NCBI GenBank assembly: GCA_964385605.1
Contig: CAYLPQ010000001.1
Location: 77,896-141,895 of the forward strand
Origin: an uncultured Oscillospiraceae bacterium
GTDB lineage: Bacteria > Bacillota > Clostridia > UMGS1883
Length of the DNA: 64,000 nt
Direction: 5' to 3'
Shown here in pieces: positions 20,144-60,669 of the stretch (its first letter is position 1; each line of letters starts with the position of its first letter). A program made the translations under genes and the position numbers. The notes under the pieces are model-generated. The model made no database searches and had not been told where the DNA came from. It saw only the letters and a program-made list of their open reading frames with translations.

Positions 20144-21025
20144 CTATTTAATTTCCCAGCCATTTTCACTATTTAAAAGACGCATTATAACAGGACGTTC
20201 ATCCTGCACAGGCTCGTTGGGCTTGTGCATAATAAAATACTCATTACCGCAAATATCCTCAAATATCATTCCGTGTCCGCCATTTTTATCCGAAACAGGA
20301 TTTTGAAGAACTTGCCAGTTTCCGTCTATATCCCCATTGTCGCTTTTTGCGATAAGCTCTGCATATCCGCTCCGGGTAAAGCTGGACCACAGGCAATATA
20401 ACTCACCATCTGTATTTCGTTTTAAAAACGGTCCGTCAGTAACAAAAGCAATCTCGTTTTCTCTTACGGTTTTTACACCTTTAAAATCAGATGCTTTCCA
20501 CAGTGTTTTGGGGACAGAAACGACTTCAGTCAAATCTGCCGAAAGCTGCACTTCACAGATTTCTCCGTCACCTGTCTGCAACCATTCATGACAAAAAACA
20601 ATGTGAGGGGCACCCTTTTTGTCAATATACAGAGTCCCATCAAGACATTCCCAATCGCGAGGAGTTACCGGGCAGTCTGATACCGGCACAAAATTGCCGT
20701 CAGGTGTATCAGAAACAAGAATATGCGTACCACGGCACTCTTTTTCTGACTTAAACGTGGCGAACATATAAAATTTTCCGTTGTAAAAATACACTTCCGG
20801 CGCCCAGAAATCCATGGTTCCCCAGAAACCATCTTGTTTCTCAAAAACGGATTTTGGTTCGTTCCAGTTTTTCAGGTCCTTGCTTACATAAACATCAAAC
20901 CCGGTTTGTTCACCCCATGGTTTTTCTTTTGTCGGCATGCCTACTCTTGAACCGTACATATAATATTTATTTTCCCACAACAAAATAAAAGGATCTCTTA
21001 TATTTATTTTTTCAAGTTTCATCAT
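20144..21025 (-). CDS. GH43-family glycoside hydrolase (beta-xylosidase/arabinofuranosidase-like five-bladed propeller)
   Basis: The N-terminal IRDPFILLWENKYYMYGS has the catalytic Asp motif. Internal WAPE and FYMFAT blocks are also present. The protein is cytoplasmic. Confidence 0.7.
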   Translation of the reverse strand: MMKLEKINIRDPFILLWENKYYMYGSRVGMPTKEKPWGEQTGFDVYVSKDLKNWNEPKSVFEKQDGFWGTMDFWAPEVYFYNGKFYMFATFKSEKECRGTHILVSDTPDGNFVPVSDCPVTPRDWECLDGTLYIDKKGAPHIVFCHEWLQTGDGEICEVQLSADLTEVVSVPKTLWKASDFKGVKTVRENEIAFVTDGPFLKRNTDGELYCLWSSFTRSGYAELIAKSDNGDIDGNWQVLQNPVSDKNGGHGMIFEDICGNEYFIMHKPNEPVQDERPVIMRLLNSENGWEIK

Positions 21026-25279: not shown

Positions 25280-25352
25280 AGACAAGAATACAACACATTT
25301 TTCTTTATTTCCTTAAATTTGTTGTTCAAATAGAATAAAACAAGAAAATATT

Positions 25353-32964: not shown

Positions 32965-32980
32965 ACTTAATCCTCCTGAC

Positions 32981-37699: not shown

Positions 37700-37714
37700 A
37701 GTCTACCTCCCATA

Positions 37715-39274
37715 TCAGTCGGCGGCAATTATTCTGATGGCATTAATTGCTATATCTTTATTGGAAGTAATTGTGTTTGTACCACTTCCTATATCTGTGA
37801 TATCAAAAGTCATCTTCTGCCATTTTCCGCTTTCTGAAACAGTCTTTTCCTCTCCGTTAAGAGTAATTACTGTATCGTCTGTGGGAGCATTGTACGTAAC
37901 TATAACCTTTACATTTCCCGTATAGAGGTCACTGTCAGTTACATTGAACTCAACTGCACCTCCGGGAATTGAAGAAAGTTTTATTCCTGTACGGTTACCA
38001 ATTTTTTCAGGAATGAAGCCTGCCGCATTTGTTGTCAGGTCACACACGACCGTCCCTCCGTCTGCAGTAAGGTATGAGCCGGCATTTTTCTTAAGAGTAT
38101 AAAATTCGTCTGTTTCCCCATCTGTATCAAAAATCGGATACACTTTGAAATCACGAACCTTAATACCGGTTGTCCGCCAGTCATCGCAGCTTATTCTGAA
38201 GTTGTAGTAACCATTACCCAGATTGTCGTTGTACTGGAAAGTATCACCTGCCTGAAGGGGATAAACTCTTCTTATAGTTTTCCATGTATTTGTATTTGTT
38301 TTTGTAATTGCAAGTGATCTGTTCTGCCTGTTTCCGTCAGCTCTCGTGACATAGGCATCAAAAGTCATTTTTGAAGATCCTTCATCAAAATATGTAAATT
38401 CATAAGCAACAGCCTCTGCTCCCGAAGTCTCTGCAAAATAATCGTCTGAAAATCTGTAAGTAAGAAATGCCTGTCCCTGAACACCGTTTGCAATACGGTA
38501 TGTTGACCAGAAGCAGTCAAGTCCGCCCGCCTGTGTCTTTGTAACATAGAAGTTTCTGTTTTCCTCCGTGAGAGTACCTGTAAAAATGAAATTTCCGTCA
38601 GGCGACTGTGTGTATTCATCAGTAGTGATAGCCGCATTTTTGTAAAGTGTTGTTGCACTTACTTCACCAACTTCGGATTCCTTACCCTCTGTATCTACTG
38701 CACGAACTTCAAAATTGTAATCAGTTCCACTTGCAAGATTCTCAACAGTGCAGTTGAGATTTGCACAATCCTCTGCCACAAGCATCCCTTCATCGTAGAT
38801 ATTATAAGTAAGGTTATCTGTGCTGTCATAATCGTCAAGGGCACCTTCCCAGTTGATTGTGGCATCTGACACATTTGCAATTGCAGAAAGCCCCTCTGGA
38901 GCTGTAGGAGCATTGTTAAGAAGAGACATATTTCCGGAAAGACTATTCCAGACATTGTAGGCAAGAACTCCGCCATCCTCGGTCTTATCTTCAAGAGTTA
39001 AGCTGATTGTATTTCCATCGAGAAGAGAAACATCCTCACATACCTCTGCATTAACAGAAAGTATTCTGCCGGAATCAGGGTGCATATATGCCGCAACAAG
39101 CACCGCACTCTTCCCTGCAGGCTTTGAAAGAAGCTCCGCATTAACTGTAGTTACCCCGTTTTCTGTCTGCACCGTAGTTTCCCCAATAATAACTCTTTCC
39201 TCTGTTGCGCTTACATTAACGCATCCAAAAAGAACCATCATTGTAAGCATAAGCACTAAAAACTTTTTCATCAT
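37715..39274 (-). CDS. secreted protein with a fibronectin type III domain and a LamG/ConA-like region (519 aa)
   Basis: The signal peptide is MMKKFLVLMLTMMVLFGCVNVSA. The FN3 signature is NLTYNIYDEGMLVAEDCANLNCTVENLASGTDYNFEVRAVDTEGKESEVGEVSATT. Confidence 0.55.
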   Translation of the reverse strand: MMKKFLVLMLTMMVLFGCVNVSATEERVIIGETTVQTENGVTTVNAELLSKPAGKSAVLVAAYMHPDSGRILSVNAEVCEDVSLLDGNTISLTLEDKTEDGGVLAYNVWNSLSGNMSLLNNAPTAPEGLSAIANVSDATINWEGALDDYDSTDNLTYNIYDEGMLVAEDCANLNCTVENLASGTDYNFEVRAVDTEGKESEVGEVSATTLYKNAAITTDEYTQSPDGNFIFTGTLTEENRNFYVTKTQAGGLDCFWSTYRIANGVQGQAFLTYRFSDDYFAETSGAEAVAYEFTYFDEGSSKMTFDAYVTRADGNRQNRSLAITKTNTNTWKTIRRVYPLQAGDTFQYNDNLGNGYYNFRISCDDWRTTGIKVRDFKVYPIFDTDGETDEFYTLKKNAGSYLTADGGTVVCDLTTNAAGFIPEKIGNRTGIKLSSIPGGAVEFNVTDSDLYTGNVKVIVTYNAPTDDTVITLNGEEKTVSESGKWQKMTFDITDIGSGTNTITSNKDIAINAIRIIAAD

Positions 39275-43014: not shown

Positions 43015-43055
43015 GGTAAAATATTTGCACCAAAGACCGTAGTCTTTGGTGCAAA
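43015..43055 (-). terminator. rho-independent terminator 3' of ORF 43075..44235
   Basis: A 15-bp perfect stem ATTTGCACCAAAGAC-CGTA-GTCTTTGGTGCAAAT is followed on the minus strand by ATATTTTACC. Confidence 0.7.
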
Positions 43056-43074
43056 TAATATTATTTGTTGGTTT

Positions 43075-44350: not shown

Positions 44351-45151
44351 TCATACATCCAGAACCATTCTGTCATAGCAGATAACGGGATTTTTTGTAC
44401 AGCCTTTCATATCTTCAAATGCGGCTTTTTCATCATTGAGGATTGCCCTTCCGTTATGGGAGAAAAGTAATTGTCCGACATTATGGGTATCTGCAAAATC
44501 ACAAACATCCTTAACCTTATGATGACCTGTTTCTGCTATGAGGAAATCGCACCCATTCCCCAACACATTTTCAAGGTCATCCATATCACGTACATCACCG
44601 GAGTAAAGAATTGTTTTTCCGTCAACTGTAATTTTAAAGGAATAGGATTTCGGCTTTTCCCCGGGCAAAAACTTTATATGATGGTTATGAATTGCCTCGA
44701 CTTTAATATTTTCATCTTCATACAAAAGTCCGTCGGTTATTTCATGCTCACAGATTTCAAACCAATCACGATACTGTAAACCTATACCTCGTAACACATC
44801 GTCAAAGCTATTCCATAGTCCCATATCGCCTATATGAAAATCTACCTTTTTTTCAGGTGGATATGTATTGCGGACTGTGGCAAGCTTCCATATTGTATAT
44901 ATTGTGTTAAGCAGACCGCCAAGATGGTCAATATGTGGATGAGAAATAAATATTGCCTTAATCCTCAACAAATCTATCCCCATAAGATGCGCTGTACGGG
45001 AACAGCCCTCCCCTGCGTCAAAAAGATAATAATATCCGTTACTTTCAATCATCATTGATGAGTGATGACATTCAGGCATAGGCTCCGTTCCTGCACACGT
45101 TCCAAGGAAAATAATTTTTGACATATTACTTTTTTGATTCCTCATAGTCAT
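44351..45151 (-). CDS. MBL-fold metallo-hydrolase
   Basis: The FISHPHIDHLGG motif (HxHxDH) and later H and D ligands are present. The start is ambiguous among three in-frame ATGs at 45151, 45145 and 45124. Confidence 0.65.
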   Translation of the reverse strand: MTMRNQKSNMSKIIFLGTCAGTEPMPECHHSSMMIESNGYYYLFDAGEGCSRTAHLMGIDLLRIKAIFISHPHIDHLGGLLNTIYTIWKLATVRNTYPPEKKVDFHIGDMGLWNSFDDVLRGIGLQYRDWFEICEHEITDGLLYEDENIKVEAIHNHHIKFLPGEKPKSYSFKITVDGKTILYSGDVRDMDDLENVLGNGCDFLIAETGHHKVKDVCDFADTHNVGQLLFSHNGRAILNDEKAAFEDMKGCTKNPVICYDRMVLDV

Positions 45152-47996
45152 ACATTATTTCAGGAGAAAATCTGAGTCTCATAGCAAATACTTTTGCAAC
45201 ATCGTTTTCAAATCTGTATGGAGACTCCAGCATTTTGTCAAAAGCCTTCTTCACTATATCAACATAGCTGTTTTCATTATCCACACTTCCGAACAGCAAC
45301 GCATCAAGTATTTCCATACTCGTTTCAGGCTGACTGACACGTCTTTCAACCTCTTTGAACGCGGTAGAATACCAGAATTCCTGAAGCTCCTCATCGTACA
45401 TATCAACAAGCCACTTTGCCATATTAACACAGCACTGACGGATATGTTCATCGCCGGTCATACAGTAAAGCTTTCTCATTGCAGAAGCGAGCACACCGTG
45501 CATAAACGGCTTTCCGCCATAGCAGAACTTACGTTCTGTCACTTCTTTAGGCTGTGGAACAGGCATCATTGTACTTATACAGCCCGTCTTTGCATCCTGC
45601 TTAAAAATTACGCGTTCCGCCATTATGCGGCAGGCATTAAGATAGTATTCATCAAGAGTAATATCATAAGCCGCCTGTAGAGCGAGCATACACCATCCGG
45701 GTTCTCTTTCTGTAAGGAAATCAAATTTTCTTGTATAGTATTTTGCCAAAGTATCAGCACAGTTGAGAACTATAGTTTTATACCTTTCGATACCTGTCAT
45801 CTTATAGTACAATGCAAGTCCGTCATTAAAGATATGACCCATCTGAAATTTAATTTTAGGATAGCTTTTCGGTACAAGCTCGTGAGGATAGTAATTATTT
45901 GCATGACCTACAGTGTGGACAAAGAAATAACCCTTTTCCTCAAAACTCACTCCTGTATGGCTGGTATCAACCTCCGAATAATGAGCCATACCAATACGGG
46001 CAAGGTCATAGAAACGTTCGTCACCCGTTCTCAAATAGTGAATCATCAATCCATAATGGAAATCATATTCAAGATTCATCCAGTGAATATTGTTCTCACC
46101 AAAGCTGTCTCCGTAATTAAGCATACCGTAATCACGGTAGCTTTCTCTATGATTAAGATATAACTGGAGGGAATTATCCATATAAGCATCATATTTGGGA
46201 AAATCGGGACATCCGCATTTAATACGTCCGAAAGCCATGCTTTTTTCAATTGCTTCACAGTCGGGATGGAGAAATGATATATCTGTCAGCTTTTCTGCAT
46301 CTTTTCCAAAAATAACTGTGTGATATTTTCGGAGCCCGCCGTGGAATTCATATTTTCCTGTTTTTAAATAGAAAAACATCTGTGCTTCGAGAAGTACATC
46401 CTCCTTTCTATAATGCTCCGGCTTTGTAATAAAGGGGCAAATTCCGATTTTTACTGAATCTTCTGCTGCAACAAATGATTTAGGGTAATTCTGCCAGAAT
46501 TCTTCAACAATAATTTCTGTATTATCAACAGCAAAACGTCCGTCAATCTTCTGCGCCACTTCTTTTCCGCCTACAACAGCCGTTTTTTCATCAAGCTGCA
46601 TTACATCTATTGAACAGCTATTCTGTGAAGGTCCTTCCAGATACAGCCCGTTAATTGTGTAAAATTCGTTATTCAACAAATCATTTTCAAATCCAAACTC
46701 AAGACGGTACGCATCTATATTCCTGTAAAAGTGCAGGTGGGTATAGCATTTCATACTTCTTTTTCCATCACACATAAAACGGTTAAAACGCGTTATTACA
46801 ATGTGATTTGCACCCTGCTCCTCTACAAAATACTCACCACCGCAAGCAGTATAACGCATATCATCTGCACCATAAAGAACAGCATACAGTTCCTTGTCCG
46901 GAAGTACGGAATTATTTTTGTTGTTGAAATAGTACACTTTTTCTCCGTTTGTAACAGTTATGCCATCTTCACTACAAACAGCAGAAAATTTTTCGAGACT
47001 GACCTGCTTATCACTATCCACTGCATAAAACTTTCTTCCGTCAAGAGGCAAAATTGCGTTGACAGAAACTGTTTTAATACTGTCGTCATTCCATTTGGAA
47101 GTAACTTTGCACTGCGTGAGATAGTTCTCACCGTTTTCGTCGGTAATATGAAGTCCGTCACAGGAATACATTTCTCCGATACCGAAAGGAAGTACACTCA
47201 CAGCAGGATATATACCTTCTTTTTCAGCATCGCATTTAAGTTCGATTTTTACCGGAGAATTACTTCCTTTTTCATAAACTTTTGCTTTACATCTGCCACG
47301 TCCGCAAAGGATATTACCCTCTTCATCCTGAAGCTCAATAACAAATCTCATTCCCCACAATTCCTCGGGAATTGTAAAGCGATGATTATTAAGATATTCT
47401 TCCTCTGTATAAATAGTATCTCCCAGCAATATTCTACCGCGGCAGGCAACCTTGGTCCAGAAGCGAACCTCGCCGTTATCTGTTGTTAAATTCATAATAC
47501 GGTTAAGTTGAGGCTTGGGAGCATCCTTCATAAGCACAATTGCTGTAAAAAGAACGTGTTCACCATCAAGAACCAGATATTTTATTTCATCGCCTTTTTT
47601 AAGCTCTATAGCATCTTCAGTTACAAAGAAATAATACTTTTTATCATCTCTTCCGTAGCGAAATCTTCCTATTCTTTCACCGTTCACACTAAGTTCAACA
47701 AGACATTCGCCAAAGGCACCGCACTCTTCTTCGAGCACAGGAATATACTCTTCATCATAGGTGCCGAAAGTATCTCTCACCTGAAGTGCAAGGTAATATT
47801 TTCCGTCAGCAGGAGCTTTTGCCGAAAGGCTTGCTCCTGCTGAACCAAAATCAAACACATGAGGTACAAAGTAACTTCTTCTCTGCGCATGAAAGCCCTC
47901 ATTATGTAACATATCAGAAGACAAAACAAAATCATTTTCTGAATGAACATATTTTGTTATTTCTGCATCTCCTGAAAGTAATCTGATAAAATTCAT
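45126..47996 (-). CDS. large cytoplasmic protein (956 aa) of unknown function, possibly a carbohydrate-active enzyme
   Basis: There is no signal peptide. It has beta-rich N-terminal two-thirds and a helix-rich C-terminal third. It sits between secreted-enzyme genes and the MBL hydrolase gene. I cannot name a family motif. Confidence 0.4.
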   Translation of the reverse strand: MNFIRLLSGDAEITKYVHSENDFVLSSDMLHNEGFHAQRRSYFVPHVFDFGSAGASLSAKAPADGKYYLALQVRDTFGTYDEEYIPVLEEECGAFGECLVELSVNGERIGRFRYGRDDKKYYFFVTEDAIELKKGDEIKYLVLDGEHVLFTAIVLMKDAPKPQLNRIMNLTTDNGEVRFWTKVACRGRILLGDTIYTEEEYLNNHRFTIPEELWGMRFVIELQDEEGNILCGRGRCKAKVYEKGSNSPVKIELKCDAEKEGIYPAVSVLPFGIGEMYSCDGLHITDENGENYLTQCKVTSKWNDDSIKTVSVNAILPLDGRKFYAVDSDKQVSLEKFSAVCSEDGITVTNGEKVYYFNNKNNSVLPDKELYAVLYGADDMRYTACGGEYFVEEQGANHIVITRFNRFMCDGKRSMKCYTHLHFYRNIDAYRLEFGFENDLLNNEFYTINGLYLEGPSQNSCSIDVMQLDEKTAVVGGKEVAQKIDGRFAVDNTEIIVEEFWQNYPKSFVAAEDSVKIGICPFITKPEHYRKEDVLLEAQMFFYLKTGKYEFHGGLRKYHTVIFGKDAEKLTDISFLHPDCEAIEKSMAFGRIKCGCPDFPKYDAYMDNSLQLYLNHRESYRDYGMLNYGDSFGENNIHWMNLEYDFHYGLMIHYLRTGDERFYDLARIGMAHYSEVDTSHTGVSFEEKGYFFVHTVGHANNYYPHELVPKSYPKIKFQMGHIFNDGLALYYKMTGIERYKTIVLNCADTLAKYYTRKFDFLTEREPGWCMLALQAAYDITLDEYYLNACRIMAERVIFKQDAKTGCISTMMPVPQPKEVTERKFCYGGKPFMHGVLASAMRKLYCMTGDEHIRQCCVNMAKWLVDMYDEELQEFWYSTAFKEVERRVSQPETSMEILDALLFGSVDNENSYVDIVKKAFDKMLESPYRFENDVAKVFAMRLRFSPEIMYDYEESKK

Positions 47997-48018: not shown

Positions 48019-51000
48019 TTAATACTGTGAAATATTAAATCCGCGGCCTATTCCGTCAGCCACTTTTGCACCATTTTTGTTATACCAGAAATAGAGAACA
48101 ACTGTGCCGCCTTCGTTTGTAATTGTTCCTATGTCAGTTGTTCCGTCGCCATCCATATCGCAAGTAAATTTCTGCTGACCCGTCTGATATGATTTCATAC
48201 TGGTTGAGTCATAACCTCTTACGGGTGCAAGGGGTTTTACTCTAACTTTAAATTCACCGTCAACCAGAACATTATCTGTAGGCATAAAAATGTAATCAGT
48301 GCTACCCTCACCTGTCCAGTTAATGATATTAAACTGTCTGTTACGGATATAACTGTTTGCGACATTGAGGACTTCTCCGTCAAGTGATAAGTACATAAGC
48401 TGTGATGCCGGCTGTCCCATAGCATTGTCACCGGTAATAATCTGGAATGGATTATCGTCAATACCGAGATTTGCTTTTTCCACAGTTTCATAATGCACTG
48501 CATCATCAAGTGCCCATACTCTGTCACCGTTACCGTCAATCATAATTATGTTACTTCCGCCGCCACAGGGAGACATACAGAAGCGCTGGTCTTCTTTGGG
48601 AATACCCTTATTCGGGAAAGCCTTCAATGTTCCCTCTAGTTTTTCAGTAAGAAGTGCCTTATCTTCAGCATCTATTTTGCCGTCGCCCGTTGTATCTCCG
48701 GCAGTAAACTGATTTCCTGTAAGGGTTACCTCTCCGCTAATATGCTTGTTAAGCAAATCAAGGTCTTTATCATTAATAATTAAATCACCCGTTGTGTCAC
48801 CTGTAAGAACAAAATTAACCACTTCAAGTGAATCCTTATGTCCGCGGCTTATATAACCGGGATAGTCATCCTCTTTCATTGACCAGAGTACACTTCCGTC
48901 ATCATCTATGCAAGCATATCCTACGATAACTTCATCGTGACCGTCATTATCAATATCTATAGGCTGTGGATAATGACCAACCTTTAATCCTTCCGGCATA
49001 CAGGTGTACCAGATAGGCTTCCAGTCTTTGGTATATGCCCATACTTCTGTATAACGGGTTTTTACCATAATATCACTGGGATAGCCGTTGCCCGAAATAT
49101 CAGCAAAGATTATGGTATCACTTGCCCAACTTCCTGCTGTATATTCAGACATTGGCATTTTATAACGATTTTTCACTTCACCGGTAGCAGCATTGAATAT
49201 GTAAAGATATTCGCTTGTAGCTGCAACAACCTCAAGCTGACCGTCATTTTCCAGGTCGTGCACCTGACAAGGCAAGTCACTACCAAGAGCTTTTGAACCT
49301 TTAGCAGGGTCTCCCCATTTCCAGAGGATGGTACCGTCTGCTTCCTGTACAGCTATACTTGCACAATCGTGATTTCCCGAGAAAAGGGGATCATCGTAAA
49401 TACGTGCAGAAATGTACTCAAGCTCACCGTCGTTATCAACATCGTTTACACAAACCCATCGGCTCTGATAATCCGGATCAAGCTCAACACGCAAATCCGG
49501 TTCTACATATTCAATATTCTCCGGCGCACCTCCGGGGGCAAACACCTGAAACTCTGAAAGAGCTGCTGTTCCCTGCAATTCAGTCACGGTAAATCGTACA
49601 CTTGTTACAGTCTTTGCATCAAAAGTAACATCACTGGGATAACCAGTATTTCGTATATCTTTCACTTGTATTTCTGAACCGTCGCTGAAAGTAAGAACTC
49701 CAGCTTTTATCCAGTTATCATATTTCGCTGAATCGTGAAGAATAATACGGTTTATTGTCTGCGGTTCATTCCATGAAAGCTCAACCCACTTTTCCGCTTC
49801 ATCACCGCTGTGCCATTCACCGATACCACCGAATTCTGCAATTATATTATCATTAATTCCCTGTTTGTCATATTCTGCAGACTTTTCGCCGGATACATTG
49901 ACATCTGCATAGAAAGCGAGATTATCTACGGGAGTACGGCGCTTGAGAATAACTCGAAATTCAGAAAGCTGTGCATAGGTAGTATTTCCCATTGCATCGA
50001 TTGCATCGTAAATAGTTATTCTGACATTTGTTGAACGTGCAGGAGCAAAGCTCAAAATCTGCTCGCCACTATAGAACTTGTCGGTTCTATCCTGTACAGT
50101 TTCGTAAACTGTACCACCGCTTCTGTCCACATCTACTGTATATTTAAGAGAAACTCCGTCAGGAATCTTAAGGTATGCACCCTCAACCTCGCTTTCACGC
50201 ACAAGGTCTATATTACAGAACTGCGTAAAGGTGTAAAGCGAAGGAGCATCATAGTAGTCTACATCGATTTTACCGCCGGTAGCCTTTCCTATCGACCATC
50301 CGGTGGGTTTTGTTGTGCCGGCTTCATACTCTTCAAAATTCTGCTGTGTTACAACTTCTTCAAAGCTTTGAAGAGGAGAAGAATACGAAACCTTGATATT
50401 ATCTAGGTAAAAACCGCCTGTAGTACGCGTACTCATGTGATAGCGAAGCTGTCTGACATCATCACAACGTTCTCTGAAAGATGCCTCCGCCAGACAAAGC
50501 TTACCATCTACGTATGTATCATAAGTCTGTGAATCTGTGTTTATTACAATTTTAATATTGTACCATGTATCTGCAGAAACGTCTCTGTAAACGGTTCCTC
50601 CACCGCCGGCAAGTTTAAACACACCGCCTGACTGAATAAGTGAAACTGCCGTATTGCCGTTTGAGCTGTAAATATACGGAAGTGCTTTCTCATCTGAAAC
50701 ATCTGTTACAAGCACGTCCTGTTCAACAACTACAATACCTTTACACGGTTCAAAATTATACTGCATAGCAAGAGTAGTGTTTCCTATTTCAGGCTTCAAA
50801 AGACGAAGACTCTTTCCGTTATCTACAGGAGTAAGCGGAGGTGCAGCCTGCCACTTTGTAGAATCCTCTCCGTCTACTAAATTACTCGCCGGAAACTCCT
50901 CTGTCTCGGTAGAGAATGTAACCTTGCTGCCAGTATAAATTCCCGGAACATATTCCTCATCTGGAGCTTTATAGTTATCAAGATAAGGGACACGCGAACT

Positions 51001-51714
51001 ATAATATACTTCACGCGGATCACTTTCCACAGAAGATCCGCCGGTACTTATTGATGCACCGCTGCCTGTATTTGATATTTTTATCCCGGTAAGTATCTCC
51101 CCTGAATTTATAAGCATACTGTCAAGGAGAAGTTTTGCATTTTTTCCCGTTACACTATACTGAACACTGTTTGCAGAGCTTTTCGTGCTGTAATTCAGTG
51201 TTCCTCCGATTTTAATACCATTAAGCATAACTTCGTAGCTTGCAGCCTGCAGATTTGCATTTATCTCTACATTATACCAGGTTCTTTCCACATAACCCGA
51301 AAGCTTCACCCAGCCGTTGTTGCTCATAGCTTTAATCTGTCTGTTACTGAATGTGACTGTAAACAAAGTTTTTCCGTCGGACATAACACGTATCTGTGCT
51401 TCTTTTCCGTCGTAAAAACAAATTTTTTGTCTTAAAACCAACACACTGTCTGTAGAGCTATCAAAATTAACACGCGCAACTGCCATATCTCCTGTATCAT
51501 TAGTAAGGCTAATGCCCTTACTGTCAGCTCCGTTTGCCATTTTTACCGTGCTTCCGTAAAATGTTTCGAATTTTTCCAATTGACTTTCCGATTGTGAATC
51601 AAAATTCAATTCCATATAAAGTGGCTCTTTATCCTCCGCCTGTACAGGAATAATTCCAATACAGAGCATAAGAATCATTGCCAGTATTTTTTTCATTGCG
51701 CATCCTCCTTTCAA
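48019..51714 (-). CDS. secreted multi-domain protein (1231 aa): LamG-like N-terminus, F5/8-type-C/CBM32-like domain, FG-GAP/beta-propeller region (PL11 rhamnogalacturonan-lyase-like), dockerin-like Ca-binding pair
   Basis: A signal peptide (MKKILAMILMLCIGIIPVQA) follows MKGGCA. FG-GAP-like repeats are DVDNDGELE, DLENDGQLE and DIDNDGHDE. The dockerin-like pair is GDTTGDLIINDKDLDLLNKHISG...AGDTTGDGKIDAEDKALLTEKLEG, coded around 48625..48810. Confidence 0.55.
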   Translation of the reverse strand: MKGGCAMKKILAMILMLCIGIIPVQAEDKEPLYMELNFDSQSESQLEKFETFYGSTVKMANGADSKGISLTNDTGDMAVARVNFDSSTDSVLVLRQKICFYDGKEAQIRVMSDGKTLFTVTFSNRQIKAMSNNGWVKLSGYVERTWYNVEINANLQAASYEVMLNGIKIGGTLNYSTKSSANSVQYSVTGKNAKLLLDSMLINSGEILTGIKISNTGSGASISTGGSSVESDPREVYYSSRVPYLDNYKAPDEEYVPGIYTGSKVTFSTETEEFPASNLVDGEDSTKWQAAPPLTPVDNGKSLRLLKPEIGNTTLAMQYNFEPCKGIVVVEQDVLVTDVSDEKALPYIYSSNGNTAVSLIQSGGVFKLAGGGGTVYRDVSADTWYNIKIVINTDSQTYDTYVDGKLCLAEASFRERCDDVRQLRYHMSTRTTGGFYLDNIKVSYSSPLQSFEEVVTQQNFEEYEAGTTKPTGWSIGKATGGKIDVDYYDAPSLYTFTQFCNIDLVRESEVEGAYLKIPDGVSLKYTVDVDRSGGTVYETVQDRTDKFYSGEQILSFAPARSTNVRITIYDAIDAMGNTTYAQLSEFRVILKRRTPVDNLAFYADVNVSGEKSAEYDKQGINDNIIAEFGGIGEWHSGDEAEKWVELSWNEPQTINRIILHDSAKYDNWIKAGVLTFSDGSEIQVKDIRNTGYPSDVTFDAKTVTSVRFTVTELQGTAALSEFQVFAPGGAPENIEYVEPDLRVELDPDYQSRWVCVNDVDNDGELEYISARIYDDPLFSGNHDCASIAVQEADGTILWKWGDPAKGSKALGSDLPCQVHDLENDGQLEVVAATSEYLYIFNAATGEVKNRYKMPMSEYTAGSWASDTIIFADISGNGYPSDIMVKTRYTEVWAYTKDWKPIWYTCMPEGLKVGHYPQPIDIDNDGHDEVIVGYACIDDDGSVLWSMKEDDYPGYISRGHKDSLEVVNFVLTGDTTGDLIINDKDLDLLNKHISGEVTLTGNQFTAGDTTGDGKIDAEDKALLTEKLEGTLKAFPNKGIPKEDQRFCMSPCGGGSNIIMIDGNGDRVWALDDAVHYETVEKANLGIDDNPFQIITGDNAMGQPASQLMYLSLDGEVLNVANSYIRNRQFNIINWTGEGSTDYIFMPTDNVLVDGEFKVRVKPLAPVRGYDSTSMKSYQTGQQKFTCDMDGDGTTDIGTITNEGGTVVLYFWYNKNGAKVADGIGRGFNISQY

Positions 51715-54390
51715 TTACTCTTCTATAACAAATATTTCACGAATATAGTGATAGCGATAGTTAAGAACCATAAGTGTACCATCGGGCAGGCTTTGCGGGC
51801 TTCCGGTGGATGGAATCAAAATAGATTCATCTGCCGATTCAAATTTTCTTGTTTCGTCTGAATATTTATAAACGATACTACCATTCAGATATGCCGCCCA
51901 CGGACGTTCTTGCCCTACATATACACTTACTGCAGAGCCGTTCTTTCGCCACAATCTACCAGTCTGGCTCCAGATTGTGGGGAATCTTCCGCTTCCTTTT
52001 ATTACTGTTCGTTCAGTTAATGTCAAACCTTTACTTGGTGAATATATTACATAATCAGAATGGATTTTCAGTTCACCTTTAAGAGTCTTCTGGCACTGAA
52101 CAATACTTCCCGGTTCAGGAACCGAACCATCAAGCGAAGTATAAACAAATTCTTCTTCAACACCGCGAAGAAAACCTTTTACCATAGGCTGAAATTCTCC
52201 ATCCTTGTCCTTGCCCATATAAACACTGTTAATTGCAAGGAAATATGAGTCAAGCACTTCTACATCACTGTCTGCAGAGGCATCGGGCATATACAGAAGA
52301 ACGGATGCAGTATATGTATCATCGCAATCAAACACCTGCATATTGGCATAATCGTCATTATTCTCAAATATAGAAGCATCAACTATCTGCATATCATCTT
52401 CTACAACTTCGCCGTTATTACATGGAAGGTAGAAAACCTTTGTTGTTCCGGAAAGATGGAACACATGATTATATGAAGATTCATGAACAAAGCTTGATGT
52501 TGAGTTCTGGAAATTATAGGTTTCTGATGTGGTTATCGCATCGAAATCCATAGAAAATTTATCAAGATTATATCCTAATGCTGTAGCATTTGTATATTTA
52601 TCTATAGCAGTAACAACACCTTCATCATTAACACTGTAGCATATCATCTGCGGAATGAAATAACCTGCTTCATCATAAAACAGGTTCATTACATCTGCAG
52701 TTTTATAAGTTTTTAATTCATATACATCAGAAGAAAATTTAATCTTATCTGCAATGTCAAATATCTGAACTTTTCCTTTATGGTCAAACAGCTTTATCTC
52801 ATATTGTTTGGAAAGTGTTCCCTTTGTTGCAGCATCTATAGCATATGCATATGCGTTTTCTTCACTGCTCACTTTATATACTGCAGCAATTTCTCCTATA
52901 ACGTCAAAATAAAATTCTGATCTTAACCCTGATTTCATTGGTGTAAAACCTGTGTTTTCAGGAAGGCTCATATATTGCTCTGAAACGGCATATTCATAGC
53001 CGTTAATCAGCACATAGGTGTTATCATCTTCAACAATTGCTTCCACTGTACCGCCAACACCGCTACGGGTTGGTATAATCGTTACAAGGGAACCGTCCTT
53101 TGAACGTGCTACACTGAGAACATCCCAGTTAGAGAGCTTAAGAAGCTGTTCCCAGCCACCCCATATGCCGTCATTACCGAGAACTCTATATGTAACGTTG
53201 TTGTTCTTATCCCTGCGAAGTGTTTTTTTATAGTGACAATTTATGACATCTTCTGCAACACTTTCGCAAACGTAGTTTTCATAATTCCAAATAAAACAAA
53301 CGTCATAAACATCATCATCGTTATGGTCTATAAGCTTTACATAACCGGTAGGAAAATCAAGGTCATCAATATCAAAGTCGAGATCGTAAACATCGTTATA
53401 CATAAAACGATGTTCTTTTGAAAGATCTGCTGTTTGTGTTTTCCCTGTCTGAGTTTTATAACAGAACTTTCTCAATGAAAATTCCGGAGAATCAGTATTT
53501 AAGTCACCTATTTTTATCATAAGTTCATTATTATCTGATGTAGGAAATGCGTATAACAGCTTTTCAGCATCTGCATTCCCATCGGTAGCATAAGCTTCAA
53601 CCATATAACCAAGAAGCGAAGGAACATATGTATCGGAATAGTTCAAAACAGTGCTTCCGATTTTAACACTTCCCTCGGCAGTATCTTTGTTTCGTGAAAG
53701 CATACTTCTGCCATCTACACTGTTTACAACAGCTTCAAATTTACGGATTCCCATATATTTACCGAGAATAGTGCTACGGGTTTTTGTGTTGTAACCAGCC
53801 TTATTAGTCACAGAAGTAAGTTCAACAAGCTCTACATCAAGGCAATTGTATACCATCTGGGCAAGCTCGGCTCTGCTTACAAAATTACCCTGATTATAAT
53901 TTACATTTTCCAAAATATCGAGCTTACTTGCGCATATAGCATAGCCCAAGGGGTATCCACCGTTTTTCTCTGCCTGAACTTCATATCCGAGAATATATAA
54001 CAAGCATTTCACTGCCTGCTCATATGTCACATAGGTATTGGGCATAAAATTACCGTTTTCGTCACCAACCATAATTTTTTGAGAATGTACTGTTGCAATC
54101 TGATGATAATACACGTGACCTTCATTAACATCTGCAAATTCAGGCTTTTGTGCAGTCTGCATATCGTGCATATTCATAAGCTTACAAATAATTGAAGCAA
54201 ATTCTCCTCTTGTAATTTGAGATGCATCAGAATCGTTGTTTGAAAATGCATCCATTATTCCCAAAGCTTTTACAACCTGCAAATGGTCTGTATTGACAGA
54301 TAGCTGTACAATGCTTTCTGCGGATGCCGGAGTCGCAGATATAAGCAGCAATATACACAAAACAATTGCTAAAACTTTACGCATATTCAA
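51715..54390 (-). CDS. cell-surface protein with N-terminal SLH domains and a large beta-rich C-terminal region (891 aa)
   Basis: The signal peptide is MNMRKVLAIVLCILLLISATPASA. The SLH-like repeats are ITRGEFASIICKLMN..., FADVNEGHVYYHQIATVHSQKIMVGDENGNFMPNTYVTYEQAVKCLLYILGY and YAICASKLDILENVNYNQGNFVSRAELAQMVYNCL. Confidence 0.6.
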   Translation of the reverse strand: MNMRKVLAIVLCILLLISATPASAESIVQLSVNTDHLQVVKALGIMDAFSNNDSDASQITRGEFASIICKLMNMHDMQTAQKPEFADVNEGHVYYHQIATVHSQKIMVGDENGNFMPNTYVTYEQAVKCLLYILGYEVQAEKNGGYPLGYAICASKLDILENVNYNQGNFVSRAELAQMVYNCLDVELVELTSVTNKAGYNTKTRSTILGKYMGIRKFEAVVNSVDGRSMLSRNKDTAEGSVKIGSTVLNYSDTYVPSLLGYMVEAYATDGNADAEKLLYAFPTSDNNELMIKIGDLNTDSPEFSLRKFCYKTQTGKTQTADLSKEHRFMYNDVYDLDFDIDDLDFPTGYVKLIDHNDDDVYDVCFIWNYENYVCESVAEDVINCHYKKTLRRDKNNNVTYRVLGNDGIWGGWEQLLKLSNWDVLSVARSKDGSLVTIIPTRSGVGGTVEAIVEDDNTYVLINGYEYAVSEQYMSLPENTGFTPMKSGLRSEFYFDVIGEIAAVYKVSSEENAYAYAIDAATKGTLSKQYEIKLFDHKGKVQIFDIADKIKFSSDVYELKTYKTADVMNLFYDEAGYFIPQMICYSVNDEGVVTAIDKYTNATALGYNLDKFSMDFDAITTSETYNFQNSTSSFVHESSYNHVFHLSGTTKVFYLPCNNGEVVEDDMQIVDASIFENNDDYANMQVFDCDDTYTASVLLYMPDASADSDVEVLDSYFLAINSVYMGKDKDGEFQPMVKGFLRGVEEEFVYTSLDGSVPEPGSIVQCQKTLKGELKIHSDYVIYSPSKGLTLTERTVIKGSGRFPTIWSQTGRLWRKNGSAVSVYVGQERPWAAYLNGSIVYKYSDETRKFESADESILIPSTGSPQSLPDGTLMVLNYRYHYIREIFVIEE

Positions 54391-54397
54391 ACCTCCT

Positions 54398-56875
54398 TTA
54401 TTTCTGTGCTAATTCACCAAATAATCCGTAAAGCAGTTTTGCAGCTTCCGCTCTGCTTGTATGATTCTTTGGACGGATTGTATTATCTTCATATCCTGAA
54501 AGTATTCCCCTGGAACCGAGGCAGTTAATGGCATCCTTTGCATAATCTGAAACATCGCTGTAATCTGCAAATGATGCTACTTCAACAGCGCCCTCTGTTT
54601 CAAGCGCGCGGTAAATAATAACTGCAAGCTGTTCTCTGGTAATATAATCGTATGGCATGAATTTTCCATCTGTTCCCTGTATGATTCCATAGGACGCCGC
54701 TTTTTTTACTTCGTCGTTGAACCAATCATTATCTTTTACATCAACAAAAGCTATGGCATTTTCATTTTCCTGTTCAGGAAGCATACGACCAAGCATTACA
54801 ACGAACTCGGCACGGGTAAGTGTTCCCTCCGGACGGAAGGTATTATCCTCAAATCCTGTAATAATACCAGCTTCACAAAGTGCAGAAATTGCTTCCTCTG
54901 CCCAGTGTCCGCTTATATCTGTAAGATTATTTGTTATCTGTGTTTCCGGAGTCTGAACAACCGGTTCAATTTCGGGAGCAAGTTCCTGATTATCTTCTTT
55001 TTTATAAGCAGAGCCACCACCGCCGCCTCCGCCGGATGAGCCGCCACCGCCTGATGAACCACTTCCTGATGTAAAGTCATCCTCTTCAAGTTCAGGAGGA
55101 GTCTGGGGGTTCTCCGGAAGGTTTAAAACAGCAGTATTCCAATCTGCACGTATATCTTCAACTTTCGTATAGGATTTATTATACAGTGCCGGATACAATG
55201 AATCTGCATTTTCAGCAGTAACTGATGTAAGGTCCAGACCAAATACATCATCGTTAAACTTTTCTACAATTTCCTCAATACCGCTTCTTTCAGCCGCATT
55301 AATACTTGTCATAGCCATAGAATAGCGAAGTGCACCCTGAATTTTTTCATCTGAAATAAGAAGATTTTCGTTGTCAGTCCGTTTTGTTTCGAAATGAGAG
55401 AAGAACTCTTCTTTATTTTCATTAAACACGGCATTCTCTGCGTATTCAGTAATGTAACCGCCCTTTTCCAAAACTGCAAATACCTCTTCTGATGTTTGCG
55501 CATTCTTAAGCTCAAGATAACTCTTTGCTTTCAGAAAATCTGACTGTACCTCCGGAATTGAAGTGTAATCCACACTGCTGTTTTTGAAATATGCAGTTAT
55601 AAAAGCAAGATTATCAAGAGCTTTTTGTGTGAGTACATCATTTTCTTCAGGAAGAAGCAAACCAATTTCTTCTTCAGTCAGGAAACACGGAAGATAATAC
55701 TTAATCAAGTTCTGTGCTTCTTCATCTGCTTCCGGCAAATCTGAAAAGTCACCGGGAAGCGCTTCAAGTTGCTGCGTAGTAGCAACATATATTTTTTGTT
55801 GTTTACCACTACCCTTAATTTCTCCACCGATATAACGTTGTATATCTGCATAATACCAGCCGGGTTCTACATTTACTTCTTCTGAAAATTCAAATGTCGC
55901 TGCAGGATCATCTGTTTTTACGGCAACTGTCTGTGAAAGCTGTGTTATATCAGAATCATCCTCTGCGTTAATGAGAGAAAGGCTGTAACTCTGCTCAAGA
56001 AACACCGAATCCGTACCGTTAGAAACAACAATCCTTGGAGTTGCTTCAGCATAATTCATTGCTGCTTCAAAATTCATAGTAAGTTCAGCAGGATCATATG
56101 AAACAATACTCTTACCTCTGACAACTATATCGTCAAAATAAATTACTTCATCAAGAGGATTTCCTGTATCAAAGCGATACTGATACATTCTTACACTTTC
56201 AACAGCTTTACCTGCAGTATATCCTATTCCGCCTGTACCTATTTCCGTAAAAGTATATGTACCTACAAGTTCATTATTAAGATATACATAGAAGTTTGAC
56301 AGGTCCTTATCGGTTGTTCCGTCAACATCCACTCTGTGCATAATCATTTTTATTTTATTGAAGCTTTCTTCGGTAAAGTTTTCACCGTCATCTTCAGCAT
56401 TTTTTGGAAGATGATAAAGAGCATCTGTTCCGATTACTTCCTCACTTCCTACTTTAACTCTGTATCTGTTCAGGTCTCCGTTGTCACAACTGATTTTTAC
56501 ATTAAGACGTGCATTGCTTGCCCCCTGCATAAGCTGAACATATGCTTCTGCCCTTTCCCCGCCTGTCTCTCTGGGAAGAACTTTGAATTCAAGCTCCACT
56601 ATGTCCTGACTGACAGCGGTGTCAAGAACTATCTTTTCTGTATTATCAACTGCGCCATCCGTTCTATATAACGAGAAAGCTTTGTCTTCTGTATCACTGA
56701 TTTCAACGATAGCATTTTGAGATGATTCAGGAGTATAACTCTCAAAATCCTGATTGAATGTAATTTGTGTTATCTGTGCAGTTTCTGTTATTGCAGTTTC
56801 TTCAGCCATAGTAACCGGTATAACAGTCATTAACATTACAACTGCAAGTATAAATGATATACCTTTCTTTTTCAT
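54398..56875 (-). CDS. cell-surface protein with a Gly/Ser linker and three C-terminal SLH domains (~825 aa)
   Basis: The internal ATG at 56873-56875 (MKKKGISFILAVVMLMTVIPVTMA signal peptide) is preceded by AGGAGG. The linker is SGSGSSGGGGSSGGGGGGGS. The C-terminal SLH repeats are WAEEAISALCEAGIITGFEDNTFRPEGTLTRAEFVVML, WFNDEVKKAASYGIIQGTDGKFMPYDYITREQLAVIIYRAL and AKDAINCLGSRGILSGYEDNTIRPKNHTSRAEAAKLL. Confidence 0.7.
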   Translation of the reverse strand: MKKKGISFILAVVMLMTVIPVTMAEETAITETAQITQITFNQDFESYTPESSQNAIVEISDTEDKAFSLYRTDGAVDNTEKIVLDTAVSQDIVELEFKVLPRETGGERAEAYVQLMQGASNARLNVKISCDNGDLNRYRVKVGSEEVIGTDALYHLPKNAEDDGENFTEESFNKIKMIMHRVDVDGTTDKDLSNFYVYLNNELVGTYTFTEIGTGGIGYTAGKAVESVRMYQYRFDTGNPLDEVIYFDDIVVRGKSIVSYDPAELTMNFEAAMNYAEATPRIVVSNGTDSVFLEQSYSLSLINAEDDSDITQLSQTVAVKTDDPAATFEFSEEVNVEPGWYYADIQRYIGGEIKGSGKQQKIYVATTQQLEALPGDFSDLPEADEEAQNLIKYYLPCFLTEEEIGLLLPEENDVLTQKALDNLAFITAYFKNSSVDYTSIPEVQSDFLKAKSYLELKNAQTSEEVFAVLEKGGYITEYAENAVFNENKEEFFSHFETKRTDNENLLISDEKIQGALRYSMAMTSINAAERSGIEEIVEKFNDDVFGLDLTSVTAENADSLYPALYNKSYTKVEDIRADWNTAVLNLPENPQTPPELEEDDFTSGSGSSGGGGSSGGGGGGGSAYKKEDNQELAPEIEPVVQTPETQITNNLTDISGHWAEEAISALCEAGIITGFEDNTFRPEGTLTRAEFVVMLGRMLPEQENENAIAFVDVKDNDWFNDEVKKAASYGIIQGTDGKFMPYDYITREQLAVIIYRALETEGAVEVASFADYSDVSDYAKDAINCLGSRGILSGYEDNTIRPKNHTSRAEAAKLLYGLFGELAQK

Positions 56876-58509: not shown

Positions 58510-60669
58510 TTACCCAATTTCTTTTACTATCTCACTGTCTCCATTTAAAATAATGTCGCCGAGAAGCATCAGAAGGACACCGGTTCCGTGATTATCATCT
58601 TTAACTGTTCCCAATCTCAAGTAGTAAGAAACATCCATCGAACAGCTTGAACCCATACAAACATTATAAAAAATGCCTTCTTTATCTACGCATTTTGCGA
58701 GCAATGCTTTTAGTCCACGTTTCACATTTGCTAAATACTTCTTATCAATCCAGCCGTTCTTTACCCCGCGGTACATAGCCAGAGTAAACATAGCTGTACA
58801 GGAAGCTTCCTGATAACTTTCATCTTTATCAAGCACCTGATGCCACATACCTTCATCATCCTGGAAGCTTTCCAATCCTTCGCAAAATTCAGAAAAAGCG
58901 GAGCGCAACACTTCAAACTTATCCCCTTTTTCATCATTTACAGTAAGTAATATTTCGCTTAAAGAAAGAGCTATCCAACCATTGCCGCGACCCCAGGGGA
59001 TACAGTTTTTCAGGCCGGTATCGAGGAAGAATATATGAGAAAAAATCTTTTTTTCTTCCATATAAAGTCTCTTTTTAAATCCGCGAATCTGTGTAATGAT
59101 TTCGTCAAGACACTCGGTTTTACCAAATTCCTTATACAATCTTATCAAAAACGGACATGACATAAAGAAATCATCTGCCCACATTGTTTTGCTTTCTTTT
59201 CTGCAGAAAGTGTCGTCATCAAAACGGGAAATTTTTGTTTTTACATTATCATAAAGCTTGTCAATCAATTCGAGATACTTCTTGTCACCGGTGGTTTTAT
59301 ATGCTTCTATGAAATTTACTCCCATTGTTCCGTTATAATCAAGCAATCCTTCCGATGATGCTCCGCTCATAAAATTGGAAAAATTATACTCGGCAAAATC
59401 GTATCTTGCATAATCATACCAGTCTGCCAGGAAAGACATGTTCTCAATAAAGTACTCCGGGTATGCTCTTTCGCCAAGAGCATTTCCTGCATACTGCATA
59501 CCATACATACAAAGCATTGTCGCATAGTACCAATGACCAAAAAAGCTTGAATCAATACAAGCTCTCAATCTTGCATTCTGAAATCTCCAGAAAACGGTTT
59601 CTCCCTTTTCATTAACAAAAGGTGTAATCCTTTTATCATCAATCTCTACAATTGCATCTGTGTAAAAAGGACCGCAGTACATAAAAAGAAATTCTTCTTT
59701 TCTGTCAGTTTCCAGCATGGGAAGTCCAATGCCTTTACAGTCTTTTATCCGGAAGCCCCAACCGGCAACCTGTTTCCTTGATTTTAACAGAATTTTGTCA
59801 TTTTTCTTAATTTCTATCAGCTTTTCGTCACCTGATGACAGCTTGCAAAGCTCATTGTTGTTCATATAGACATCTGTATCAGAAGTCGCGGAAATCATAA
59901 TATAACCGTCGTTTTCAGCAAAAGTATATGCTACTGCATATTCACCTTCCTGATACATAGCAGAAAAGTCTATCAAGTCTTTTTCCTTTACAACTTTCGG
60001 AAAATTATATACAGGCTTATCTTCAAAATCACATTTGGAATGATACGCATCTTCCAAAGATGCAAAACCGGTATAAAGCGGTGAAACAGCAAGTCCTTCT
60101 TCCTTATTCAACCCTTCCACAGGAAGATTCATACGCACCATAACCAAGTAGAAATTAGCCCAAAGGCTTGCACAGCTCGGTGGCGAAATATTAAGCCAGA
60201 AGCCGTCATTTATATCATTGAAAACATATTTAATTACAAGATTGTTTTTACCGCCTTTTTTCAGGAAAACGGGCAACGAAACATACTTTTTACTTTCTGC
60301 ACAGTTTTTTGCGTCTTCAAAAGAAGAAAACAGACATTTCCCGTCAAGAAATACCGAAACAAGACCTGTAACATTTATCCACACAGTATAATCTTTTTCA
60401 ATAGATATATTGCCTGAAACATAGGCTACGTCACCGGCTTTACTTTCAGGATAGATTTTTTTCATATCAAAATAAATATCGTGCTTACGTTTTTTACCGT
60501 AGGAAATTTCCTCCATATATATGTAAGGATTCCACATCGGACTTTTTACAGGTCTGGTTTCAAGCAGATGCGAAAGCACCGTAGTTGCTATATCCTTACA
60601 GGAAACTGCGGTTTTTAAGATTGTATCCTCCGCATTCATTTTAACATTTACAACATCACTTTTATGCAT
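58510..60669 (-). CDS. GH88/GH105-like unsaturated uronyl hydrolase domain with a ~330-aa N-terminal extension (paralog of 23186..25279)
   Basis: The motif IPWGRGNGWIALSLSEILL is in the C-terminal half. The N-terminal region aligns with the paralog (KAGDVAYVSGNI vs NKGDYAYISTYL). The RBS is GGAGGT. A TATAAT lies 8 nt upstream of the RBS with a poor -35, which suggests activator dependence. Confidence 0.65.
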   Translation of the reverse strand: MHKSDVVNVKMNAEDTILKTAVSCKDIATTVLSHLLETRPVKSPMWNPYIYMEEISYGKKRKHDIYFDMKKIYPESKAGDVAYVSGNISIEKDYTVWINVTGLVSVFLDGKCLFSSFEDAKNCAESKKYVSLPVFLKKGGKNNLVIKYVFNDINDGFWLNISPPSCASLWANFYLVMVRMNLPVEGLNKEEGLAVSPLYTGFASLEDAYHSKCDFEDKPVYNFPKVVKEKDLIDFSAMYQEGEYAVAYTFAENDGYIMISATSDTDVYMNNNELCKLSSGDEKLIEIKKNDKILLKSRKQVAGWGFRIKDCKGIGLPMLETDRKEEFLFMYCGPFYTDAIVEIDDKRITPFVNEKGETVFWRFQNARLRACIDSSFFGHWYYATMLCMYGMQYAGNALGERAYPEYFIENMSFLADWYDYARYDFAEYNFSNFMSGASSEGLLDYNGTMGVNFIEAYKTTGDKKYLELIDKLYDNVKTKISRFDDDTFCRKESKTMWADDFFMSCPFLIRLYKEFGKTECLDEIITQIRGFKKRLYMEEKKIFSHIFFLDTGLKNCIPWGRGNGWIALSLSEILLTVNDEKGDKFEVLRSAFSEFCEGLESFQDDEGMWHQVLDKDESYQEASCTAMFTLAMYRGVKNGWIDKKYLANVKRGLKALLAKCVDKEGIFYNVCMGSSCSMDVSYYLRLGTVKDDNHGTGVLLMLLGDIILNGDSEIVKEIG

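Follow-up and report, generated by a model that had tools for sequence, protein, structure and literature searches.

Gene and domain layout

The stretch of DNA analysed here (the window) comprises 64,000 nucleotides (nt) of contig CAYLPQ010000001.1 from an uncultured Oscillospiraceae bacterium (assembly GCA_964385605.1). Our subject is one large secreted protein encoded in it, hereafter T, in which a dockerin is inserted into the fold of a beta-propeller. An open reading frame (ORF) check confirmed a frame of 1231 amino acids (aa) at 48019-51714 on the reverse strand, which when extended mechanically reaches a TTG at 51714. Translation almost certainly begins at the ATG at 51696 (CDS 48019..51696, reverse strand, 1225 aa): AGGAGG lies 7 nt upstream of it, and the database protein P0001 is 100% identical to the product that begins there. 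Residues are numbered below in the 1231-aa frame, and subtracting 6 gives the numbering of the 1225-aa protein; with respect to this start, the residue numbers in the preliminary description of this DNA are thus 6 too high.

T is a secreted modular protein of ~1225 aa. In order from the N to the C terminus it consists of two ConA/LamG-like modules, a beta-rich module, a discoidin-like DUF7402 domain and an eight-bladed beta-propeller with calcium blades. All of its parts lie on the reverse strand. The predicted Sec signal peptide (MKKILAMILMLCIGIIPVQA; 51637..51696) has n-, h- and c-regions and the junction VQA-E, and is kept in orthologues. The first ConA/LamG-like module (~residues 30-215, 51070..51627) gives weak Sialidase-like_CBM matches, the second (~residues 270-455, 50350..50907) weak Laminin_G_3 and Sialidase-like_CBM matches, and the two resemble each other (BLASTP 2e-4). 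The beta-rich module (~residues 460-595, 49930..50337) has no significant Pfam match and may be called F5/8-C-like only by analogy with relatives, the equivalent region being F5_F8_type_C(_2) in P0019 and in a 1637-aa protein of locus L006. It is followed by the DUF7402 or F5/8 type C discoidin-like domain (49540..49923), in which Pfam places DUF7402 at residues 598-725 (94.2 bits against a cut-off of 27, 9e-27) and F5_F8_type_C at residues 613-715 (36 bits against 28.2, 8.6e-9).

The propeller itself is encoded in two parts. Its N-terminal part (residues 735-970, 48805..49512) holds the calcium blades at D758, D820 and D920, the invariant K885-x-R887-Y888 motif and the residues H914, H959 and D961; its C-terminal part (residues 1037-1231, 48022..48606) holds H1074-Y-E1076-T, a calcium blade at 1186-1194 and a C-terminal N-I-S-Q-Y. 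Pfam recognises FG-GAP_3 in three stretches of T (6e-9) and gives a weak lambda-carrageenase-propeller match; no SLH domain was matched in T itself. The discoidin-like domain and the FG-GAP repeats named in the preliminary description are therefore both present. Between the two parts of the propeller lies the dockerin (residues 971-1036, TGDTTGD...AFPNK; 48607..48804), made up of two F-hand calcium loops and their helices.

A dockerin nested in the propeller

The preliminary description quoted two calcium-loop segments and read them as a type-I dockerin. Both segments were located, DTTGDLIINDKD at residues 973-984 and DTTGDGKIDAED at residues 1007-1018, and the paired pattern occurs in T alone among the window's 35 ORFs of at least 150 aa. 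Pfam Dockerin_1 (PF00404) matches residues 972-1026 with 26.7 bits, above the gathering cut-off of 22.9 (E = 6.4e-6), and the match spans profile positions 2-56 of 57, taking in both helices and both repeats. A phmmer search of the PDB returned dockerins and nothing else (2ccl_B at 1.4e-3), and a profile built from the 13 sequences of the family reached 4.9e-11 against the Clostridium thermocellum double dockerin 8x39 and 2.9e-6 against the XynY dockerin 2ccl_B. The segment is helical in the AlphaFold2 model (pLDDT ~78-92) and superposes on solved dockerins at 1.1-1.6 A, with 1.1 A and 35% identity for the XynY dockerin 2ccl_B. Of the calcium-ligand positions 1, 3, 5, 9 and 12 (canonically D, D/N, D/N, D/N and D), 1, 5, 9 and 12 carry canonical residues in both loops, and position 3 holds Thr in the clade of T. 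In comparisons between clades, the core and the calcium ligands are fixed and the dockerin positions 10, 11, 17 and 18 vary. We regard residues 971-1036 as a bona fide type-I-like dockerin, predicted from sequence and model to bind calcium, and the dockerin assignment of the preliminary description holds.

The same description was right that the module is internal rather than C-terminal. Its position is nevertheless not one between domains: calcium-blade or FG-GAP repeats flank the dockerin on both sides (for example DMDGDGTTD at 1186-1194), which places it within the propeller. All 27 aligned standalone propellers (~430 aa, 22-33% identity) have a turn of two to three residues, G-E/K/D, at the site of the dockerin. 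The co-encoded paralogues P0020 and P0022 read HVDSVEILNFEKGMARKDMRF where T holds the dockerin; T, compared there with P0020, which also has DUF7402 upstream, reads HKDSLEVVNFVL[66 aa]GIPKEDQRF. The insertion point falls directly after the strand that bears the conserved metal-site residues His959-x-Asp961. A complete 66-residue dockerin is thus inserted in one beta-hairpin of the propeller, as a clean domain-in-domain insertion.

Such an arrangement is rare. An exhaustive search of 1.84 billion representative sequences with a profile hidden Markov model (HMM) matched 3873 relatives, most of which align in two separate stretches and leave out profile positions 236-300. An uninterrupted match was given by four clusters only (P0007, P0016, P0017 and P0018), so that the nested dockerin is confined to about four clusters among the 3873 relatives. 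Where it occurs it is kept: all 13 orthologues (~1200-1230 aa, 35-87% identity, metagenomic) hold a dockerin at the identical site, and two more paralogous clades share the insertion, one of them with a 1637-aa GDSL-esterase fusion and with sister proteins that have no insert. The ratio dN/dS of the 66 dockerin codons is 0.05-0.15, close to that of the whole gene and to be read as rough because dS is near saturation. These values point to purifying selection on the nested dockerin.

Fusions of this kind, ~1540-1640 aa long and built of GDSL-esterase, LamG, discoidin, DUF7402 and propeller parts, are encoded directly after a paralogue of T in three loci (L006 8696-13606, L007 11515-16125 and L008 8453-13096). 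The L006 fusion carries a nested dockerin (Dockerin_1 24.1 bits), whereas the P0019-like copies in L007 and L008 do not, which indicates gain or loss of the insert within close paralogues. A different group of proteins (P0055, P0064, P0070, P0088 and P0145) came up because of the dockerin segment in the profile; these proteins are made of 6-16 tandem dockerin modules, with nine Dockerin_1 repeats in the 859 aa of P0055.

Relationship of the propeller to PL11

The preliminary description likened the propeller to those of PL11 rhamnogalacturonan lyases, and this likeness proved to be one of descent but not of demonstrated family membership. A superfamily profile, separate from the T family profile, was searched against PDB structures and found its strongest kinship among solved structures in PL11 (YesX 2.9e-18, YesW 1.3e-16, 4cag 5.3e-16), with the biofilm protein Bap1 at 4.8e-13. 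The calcium blades D758, D820 and D920 are in register with the YesW calcium blades 158, 222 and 369. H914, H959 and D961, which are invariant across the superfamily, align with YesW His363, His399 and Asp401; these three, together with Glu422, we take to be the PL11 active-site calcium ligands in the numbering of Ochiai et al. Equivalent residues and their roles are listed for the Bacteroides ovatus PL11 enzymes Bo3128 and Bo4416 (PMC8787155).

The remaining PL11 positions are not shared in the same way. YesW Glu422 lies in an insert without a counterpart in the family, whose sequence at this point is T-x-C-G-G. Of the catalytic and carboxylate-stabilising residues Arg452 and Lys535, the first is paired with the family's H-[YF]-E-[ST] motif and the second with a position that is not conserved, in a low-identity alignment in which a shift of one or two residues is possible for both; the stacking Tyr595 lies beyond the aligned range. 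The superfamily has an invariant K-x-R-Y motif of its own, with R887 nearly invariant. RGL11_C reaches only 19.0 bits in T against a Pfam cut-off of 27, over residues 919-947, and rises above the cut-off in standalone relatives (33-64 bits); a PL11 N-terminal domain was not detected in T. The propeller is thus, by profile comparison, a distant homologue of the PL11 propeller. With the His-His-Asp site kept but the Arg/Lys catalytic pair not, T is best treated as belonging to a PL11-like, uncharacterised sister family and not as a demonstrated PL11 enzyme.

Since even the cytoplasmic standalone relatives share the invariant polar residues that resemble an active site, the propeller is probably catalytic. 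A standalone protein, the 431-aa PL11-like propeller at L009 5056-6348 on a contig labelled 'uncultured archaeon', has no dockerin and is 33% identical to the part of the T propeller that precedes the dockerin.

The gene cassette and its surroundings

T comes third in a tightly packed run of four genes, A-B-T-D, whose spacing is operon-like (intergenic gaps of 7, 18 and 22 nt) and after which come overlapping MBL and Big_4 genes. The secreted protein A (54398..56875, reverse strand) has a ConA-like lectin and an Ig-like sandwich as well as a helical region, a linker rich in Gly and three SLH domains at its C terminus (5.9e-35). Protein B (51715..54390, reverse strand) is also secreted and has an N-terminal SLH triplet followed by ~700 aa of unclassified fold, so that the two SLH neighbours are not both of the C-terminal type, as had been described. 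Protein D (45126..47996, reverse strand), 956 aa long and without a signal peptide, weakly matches the first and third domains of PcRGLX (exo-rhamnogalacturonan lyase-like), and it lies directly after T or a T paralogue in most cassettes (L002, L003, L012, L014 and L015). Just downstream of the Big_4 gene, a palindromic, terminator-like hairpin with a perfect 16-bp stem (43022..43057) is probably the bidirectional terminator that ends the A-B-T-D-MBL-Big_4 operon.

The order A-B-T is kept in all loci recovered (L001-L003, L005-L008 and L012-L015), some of them paralogous cassettes with identities of only 26-42%, and one contig carries a second cassette. The loci of relatives come from gut or faecal metagenome-assembled genomes of uncultured 'Clostridia bacterium'. 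The N-terminal ~470 aa of protein A have seven homologues among 5.8 billion proteins, all of them in these cassettes, and this region is not common to the window's other C-terminal-SLH protein (605 aa). In some cassettes a GH78 rhamnosidase or a paralogue without the dockerin (P0020, P0022 or P0019-like) is encoded in addition. P0020 and P0022 are encoded inside A-B-T cassettes at L014 10001-13387 and 16281-18464 and at L015 10001-14014, and neither thus offers a dockerin-less control encoded without A and B. L014 also encodes a GH78 alpha-L-rhamnosidase, a hint that the substrate contains rhamnose.

The window as a whole (GC 38.6%) is a Gram-positive polysaccharide-utilisation region, with genes for an ABC transporter, AraC regulators, two GH88/GH105-type hydrolases, which agrees with the two GH105-like enzymes described previously, GH43 and GH4 enzymes, heparinase II/III-like and PcRGLX-like proteins, and PIG-L, GFO and M20 enzymes. 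It also holds a second, dockerin-free cluster of surface proteins (30175-39274, reverse strand). Its products are an fn3 protein (519 aa), a secreted protein without a Pfam match (966 aa), a protein with three SLH domains at its C terminus (605 aa) and a protein with N-terminal SLH domains that is 25% identical to B (929 aa). With protein A, the 605-aa product has the helical, linker and SLH part in common and nothing else. The possibility that this cluster is a paralogous dockerin cassette was rejected, the 966-aa protein being unrelated to T (hhalign probability 0.7%).

Possible partners of the dockerin

What could a dockerin placed inside a propeller bind? We tentatively favour, at somewhat less than even confidence, the interpretation that it is a surface-docking add-on whose partners are most likely the SLH proteins A and B, with the propeller acting on a glycan. 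The propeller would then be the working domain, cleaving or binding a glycan, and the substrate would probably be a rhamnose- and uronate-containing polysaccharide, as the nearby GH88/105-type, PcRGLX-like, heparinase II/III-like and GH78 genes suggest. The dockerin may be seen as an addition to this domain because the fold of paralogues and relatives does without it; its role would be calcium-dependent protein-protein docking, by which the enzyme would be held in a cell-surface complex and tethered to the SLH-anchored surface layer. A and B, co-transcribed immediately upstream, would be the most likely partners, through a receptor surface that might be a cohesin diverged beyond recognition or might be of another kind. 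The constancy of the A-B-T order through paralogous cassettes, together with an N-terminal region of A that is as rare as T, points to a relationship internal to the cassette. By analogy with PL11 topology, the strand before the insertion would begin on the active-site face and end away from it, so that docking there would leave the catalytic face free.

Several observations weigh against this interpretation. The claim of the preliminary description that the adjacent SLH proteins may bear cohesins found no support: in A and B, no Cohesin match was obtained with Pfam even at E<=10 and none by phmmer against the PDB, family profiles searched against the PDB at E<=10 gave SLH matches alone, and the homologues of both proteins (32 for B) carry only SLH annotations. 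A fold search with protein A likewise yielded no cohesin, its N terminus being modelled as a ConA-like lectin, so that A might bind polysaccharide and not the dockerin. Dockerin-less paralogues are encoded in the same operons as T with its nested dockerin, and the dockerin is thus not strictly required on every enzyme of a cassette. B-like proteins also occur apart from dockerins: one lies in the window's second SLH cluster, which lacks any dockerin protein (30175-37699), and another, the distant P0193 (L010 10001-12586, 28% identity), stands by itself amid housekeeping genes, among them those for valyl-tRNA synthetase, NusB and a topoisomerase. The B family is probably derived from a general cell-surface or S-layer protein. 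As regards the module itself, both loops have Thr at calcium-ligand position 3 in the clade to which T belongs, where other orthologues and paralogues have D or N. Both AlphaFold2 models come from shallow alignments (13 and 8 sequences, pLDDT 71 and 67), and the face that bears the dockerin is argued from PL11 topology and not from coordinates. The negative result for cohesins in A and B is not decisive, as gut ruminococcal cohesins can escape HMMs (PMC13463774).

If the partner is encoded in the cassette, protein A is the best candidate receptor, because its N-terminal ~470 aa are unique to these cassettes and absent from the other C-terminal-SLH protein. Among the fold matches of A is ERGIC-53, whose binding of MCFD2 is a known instance of an EF-hand protein bound by an L-type lectin fold. 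The narrower proposal that the receptor is a non-cohesin surface on a co-transcribed SLH protein is one to which we give rather little credence; one candidate on each protein could be considered for it, the unique ConA-like lectin and Ig-like module of A or the 700-aa region of B. If it were true, A, B and T would form an undescribed three-gene, S-layer-anchored enzyme-display system of uncultured gut Clostridia, in which a docking module within the catalytic propeller would fix the orientation of the enzyme to the cell wall.

The strongest competing explanation, in our view somewhat unlikely, is that the dockerin belongs to a cellulosome-, amylosome- or mucinolysome-like system and binds a cohesin, canonical or highly divergent, of a scaffoldin whose gene lies in another part of the genome. 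The neighbouring SLH proteins would then be glycan-binding or S-layer components and not receptors. Known dockerins bind cohesins, and the module is typical of type I dockerins in sequence and fold. Non-cellulolytic cohesin-dockerin systems exist in gut Clostridia, such as the Ruminococcus bromii amylosome (PMC4611034) and the mucinolysome (PMC12997984). The absence of a detected cohesin from the cassette, the lectin-like N terminus of A and the ability of cohesins to remain invisible to HMMs all accord with this explanation. A search of the 64-kb window revealed no cohesin-bearing scaffoldin. Such a partner at a distance would, on the other hand, leave the strict conservation of the A-B-T order through paralogous cassettes and the equal rarity of the N-terminal region of A to be accounted for, and a single dockerin protein in 64 kb is unlike cellulosomal loci.

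A separate question is whether T is an enzyme at all. It might instead serve at the surface as an adhesin or as a protein that binds glycans, through a binding propeller like that of integrin, Bap1 or BamB and several carbohydrate-binding-module-like modules, an alternative that would fit both the four lectin- or carbohydrate-binding-module-like modules upstream of the propeller and the lack of conservation of PL11 Arg452 and Lys535 in the alignment. We consider it unlikely, given the invariance of K885, Y888, H914, H959 and D961, the near invariance of R887 and the conservation of H-[YF]-E-[ST]. The same residues recur in ~430-aa standalone relatives without a signal peptide, a pattern that is active-site-like and not adhesion-like; moreover, His-His-Asp is the catalytic calcium site of PL11, the family that is also the nearest in sequence among solved structures.

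It is less probable still that the insert has no protein partner and acts as an EF-hand-like calcium-binding subdomain that stabilises, gates or regulates the propeller, for example as a calcium-dependent lid or spacer. Its location directly after the strand with the conserved His-x-Asp metal site would suit such a role, as would the failure of the searches of A and B to find a partner, and dockerin-like modules without known cohesins reportedly occur in many non-cellulosomal organisms (Peer et al. 2009, FEMS Microbiol Lett). The fold does not need the insert, however, since same-operon paralogues and 27 of 27 standalone relatives lack it, and what is conserved is the full two-repeat architecture with both helices and not a single calcium loop. 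The cohesin-contact positions 10, 11, 17 and 18 vary as a specificity surface would, although weak constraint is also compatible with this variation. Finally, a chance likeness of FG-GAP calcium loops to EF-hand or dockerin loops, which the Dx[DN]xDG motif common to calcium blades and dockerins (PMC3123361) might invite, is rejected as practically negligible on account of the near-full Pfam coverage including both helices, the helical segment that superposes on dockerins at 1.1-1.6 A and the 66 extra residues that have no counterpart in homologous propellers.

Comparison with known systems

T, with its nested dockerin, is a new arrangement of known parts. The type I dockerins of Acetivibrio thermocellum (XynY/Xyn10B, 1OHZ and 2CCL; Clo1313_0689, 8X39) have, like that of T, two 22-residue repeats, each formed by a 12-residue calcium loop and a helix, and they match it in length and fold. 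They differ in calcium-ligand position 3, where the clade of T has Thr in both loops, and the repeats of T are, compared with theirs, asymmetric at positions 10/11 and 17/18 (D-K/N-K against A-E/T-E). Known dockerins are located at a terminus or between modules; that of T is located inside a beta-hairpin of another domain. An internal dockerin occurs in the GH43-Doc-CBM42-GH43 protein of Pseudobacteroides cellulosolvens (PMC5590126), which resembles T in that the dockerin is not C-terminal; there, however, it stands between independently folding modules, whereas in T one domain is split by it. The literature searched yielded no account of a dockerin placed inside another domain.

The PL11 enzymes YesW and YesX (2Z8R, 2ZUY) and the Bacillus licheniformis rhamnogalacturonan lyase (4CAG) have an eight-bladed calcium-blade propeller, as T does, with three calcium blades in register and the His-His-Asp of the catalytic calcium site in common, and the genomic surroundings of T, with GH88/105, PcRGLX-like and GH78 genes, can be likened to those of PL11. 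Glu422, Arg452 and Lys535, by contrast, have no conserved counterpart in the T family, which has its own K-x-R-Y motif. Domain insertions in FG-GAP propellers are known, for example the beta-prism of Bap1. In the Vibrio cholerae biofilm proteins Bap1 and RbmC (6MLT), the Bap1 insert is a lectin beta-prism, where that of T is a dockerin, and Bap1 is an adhesin without SLH or cohesin context, where T is encoded beside SLH genes.

The SLH scaffoldins SdbA, OlpB, Orf2p and OlpC of A. thermocellum and the gut amylosome and mucinolysome offer a parallel of another kind, in that T is a dockerin enzyme encoded beside secreted SLH proteins. Protein A has the layout of an anchoring scaffoldin, with an N-terminal module, a linker and three SLH domains, but where a cohesin would be expected it has a ConA-like lectin together with an Ig-like domain and helices. 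The paper on the Limousia mucinolysome (PMC12997984) contains no mention of SLH, FG-GAP, GH88, GH105, propeller or PL11.

Implications

In complexes of the cellulosome type the dockerin serves as the universal plug, and it is seen as an independent module attached by a linker, also in the engineering of designer cellulosomes. A natural and conserved nesting such as that in T suggests that a dockerin tolerates domain-in-domain placement, its N and C termini being close together, and that nature may make use of rigid, orientation-fixed docking of enzymes. The strict link to two SLH proteins without recognisable cohesins raises the question of whether gut Clostridia have non-canonical dockerin receptors or undetectably divergent cohesins. 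Independently of the dockerin, a sister family of PL11, large (3873 relatives) and uncharacterised, emerges as a candidate new family of polysaccharide lyases or hydrolases for rhamnose- and uronate-containing glycans; in it the His-His-Asp site is kept and the other putative catalytic residues differ.

Other genes of the window

Two further pairs of related genes, all on the reverse strand, were noted in the window. The GH88/GH105-type hydrolases at 58510-60669 and 23186-25285 are 31% identical and have an N-terminal extension of ~370 aa, without annotation, before the Glyco_hydro_88 domain. The paralogues at 12245-14326 and 21012-23129, each of ~700 aa and 49.6% identical, have neither a signal peptide nor a Pfam match; lying amid genes for carbohydrate-active enzymes, they may represent an uncharacterised family of intracellular enzymes.

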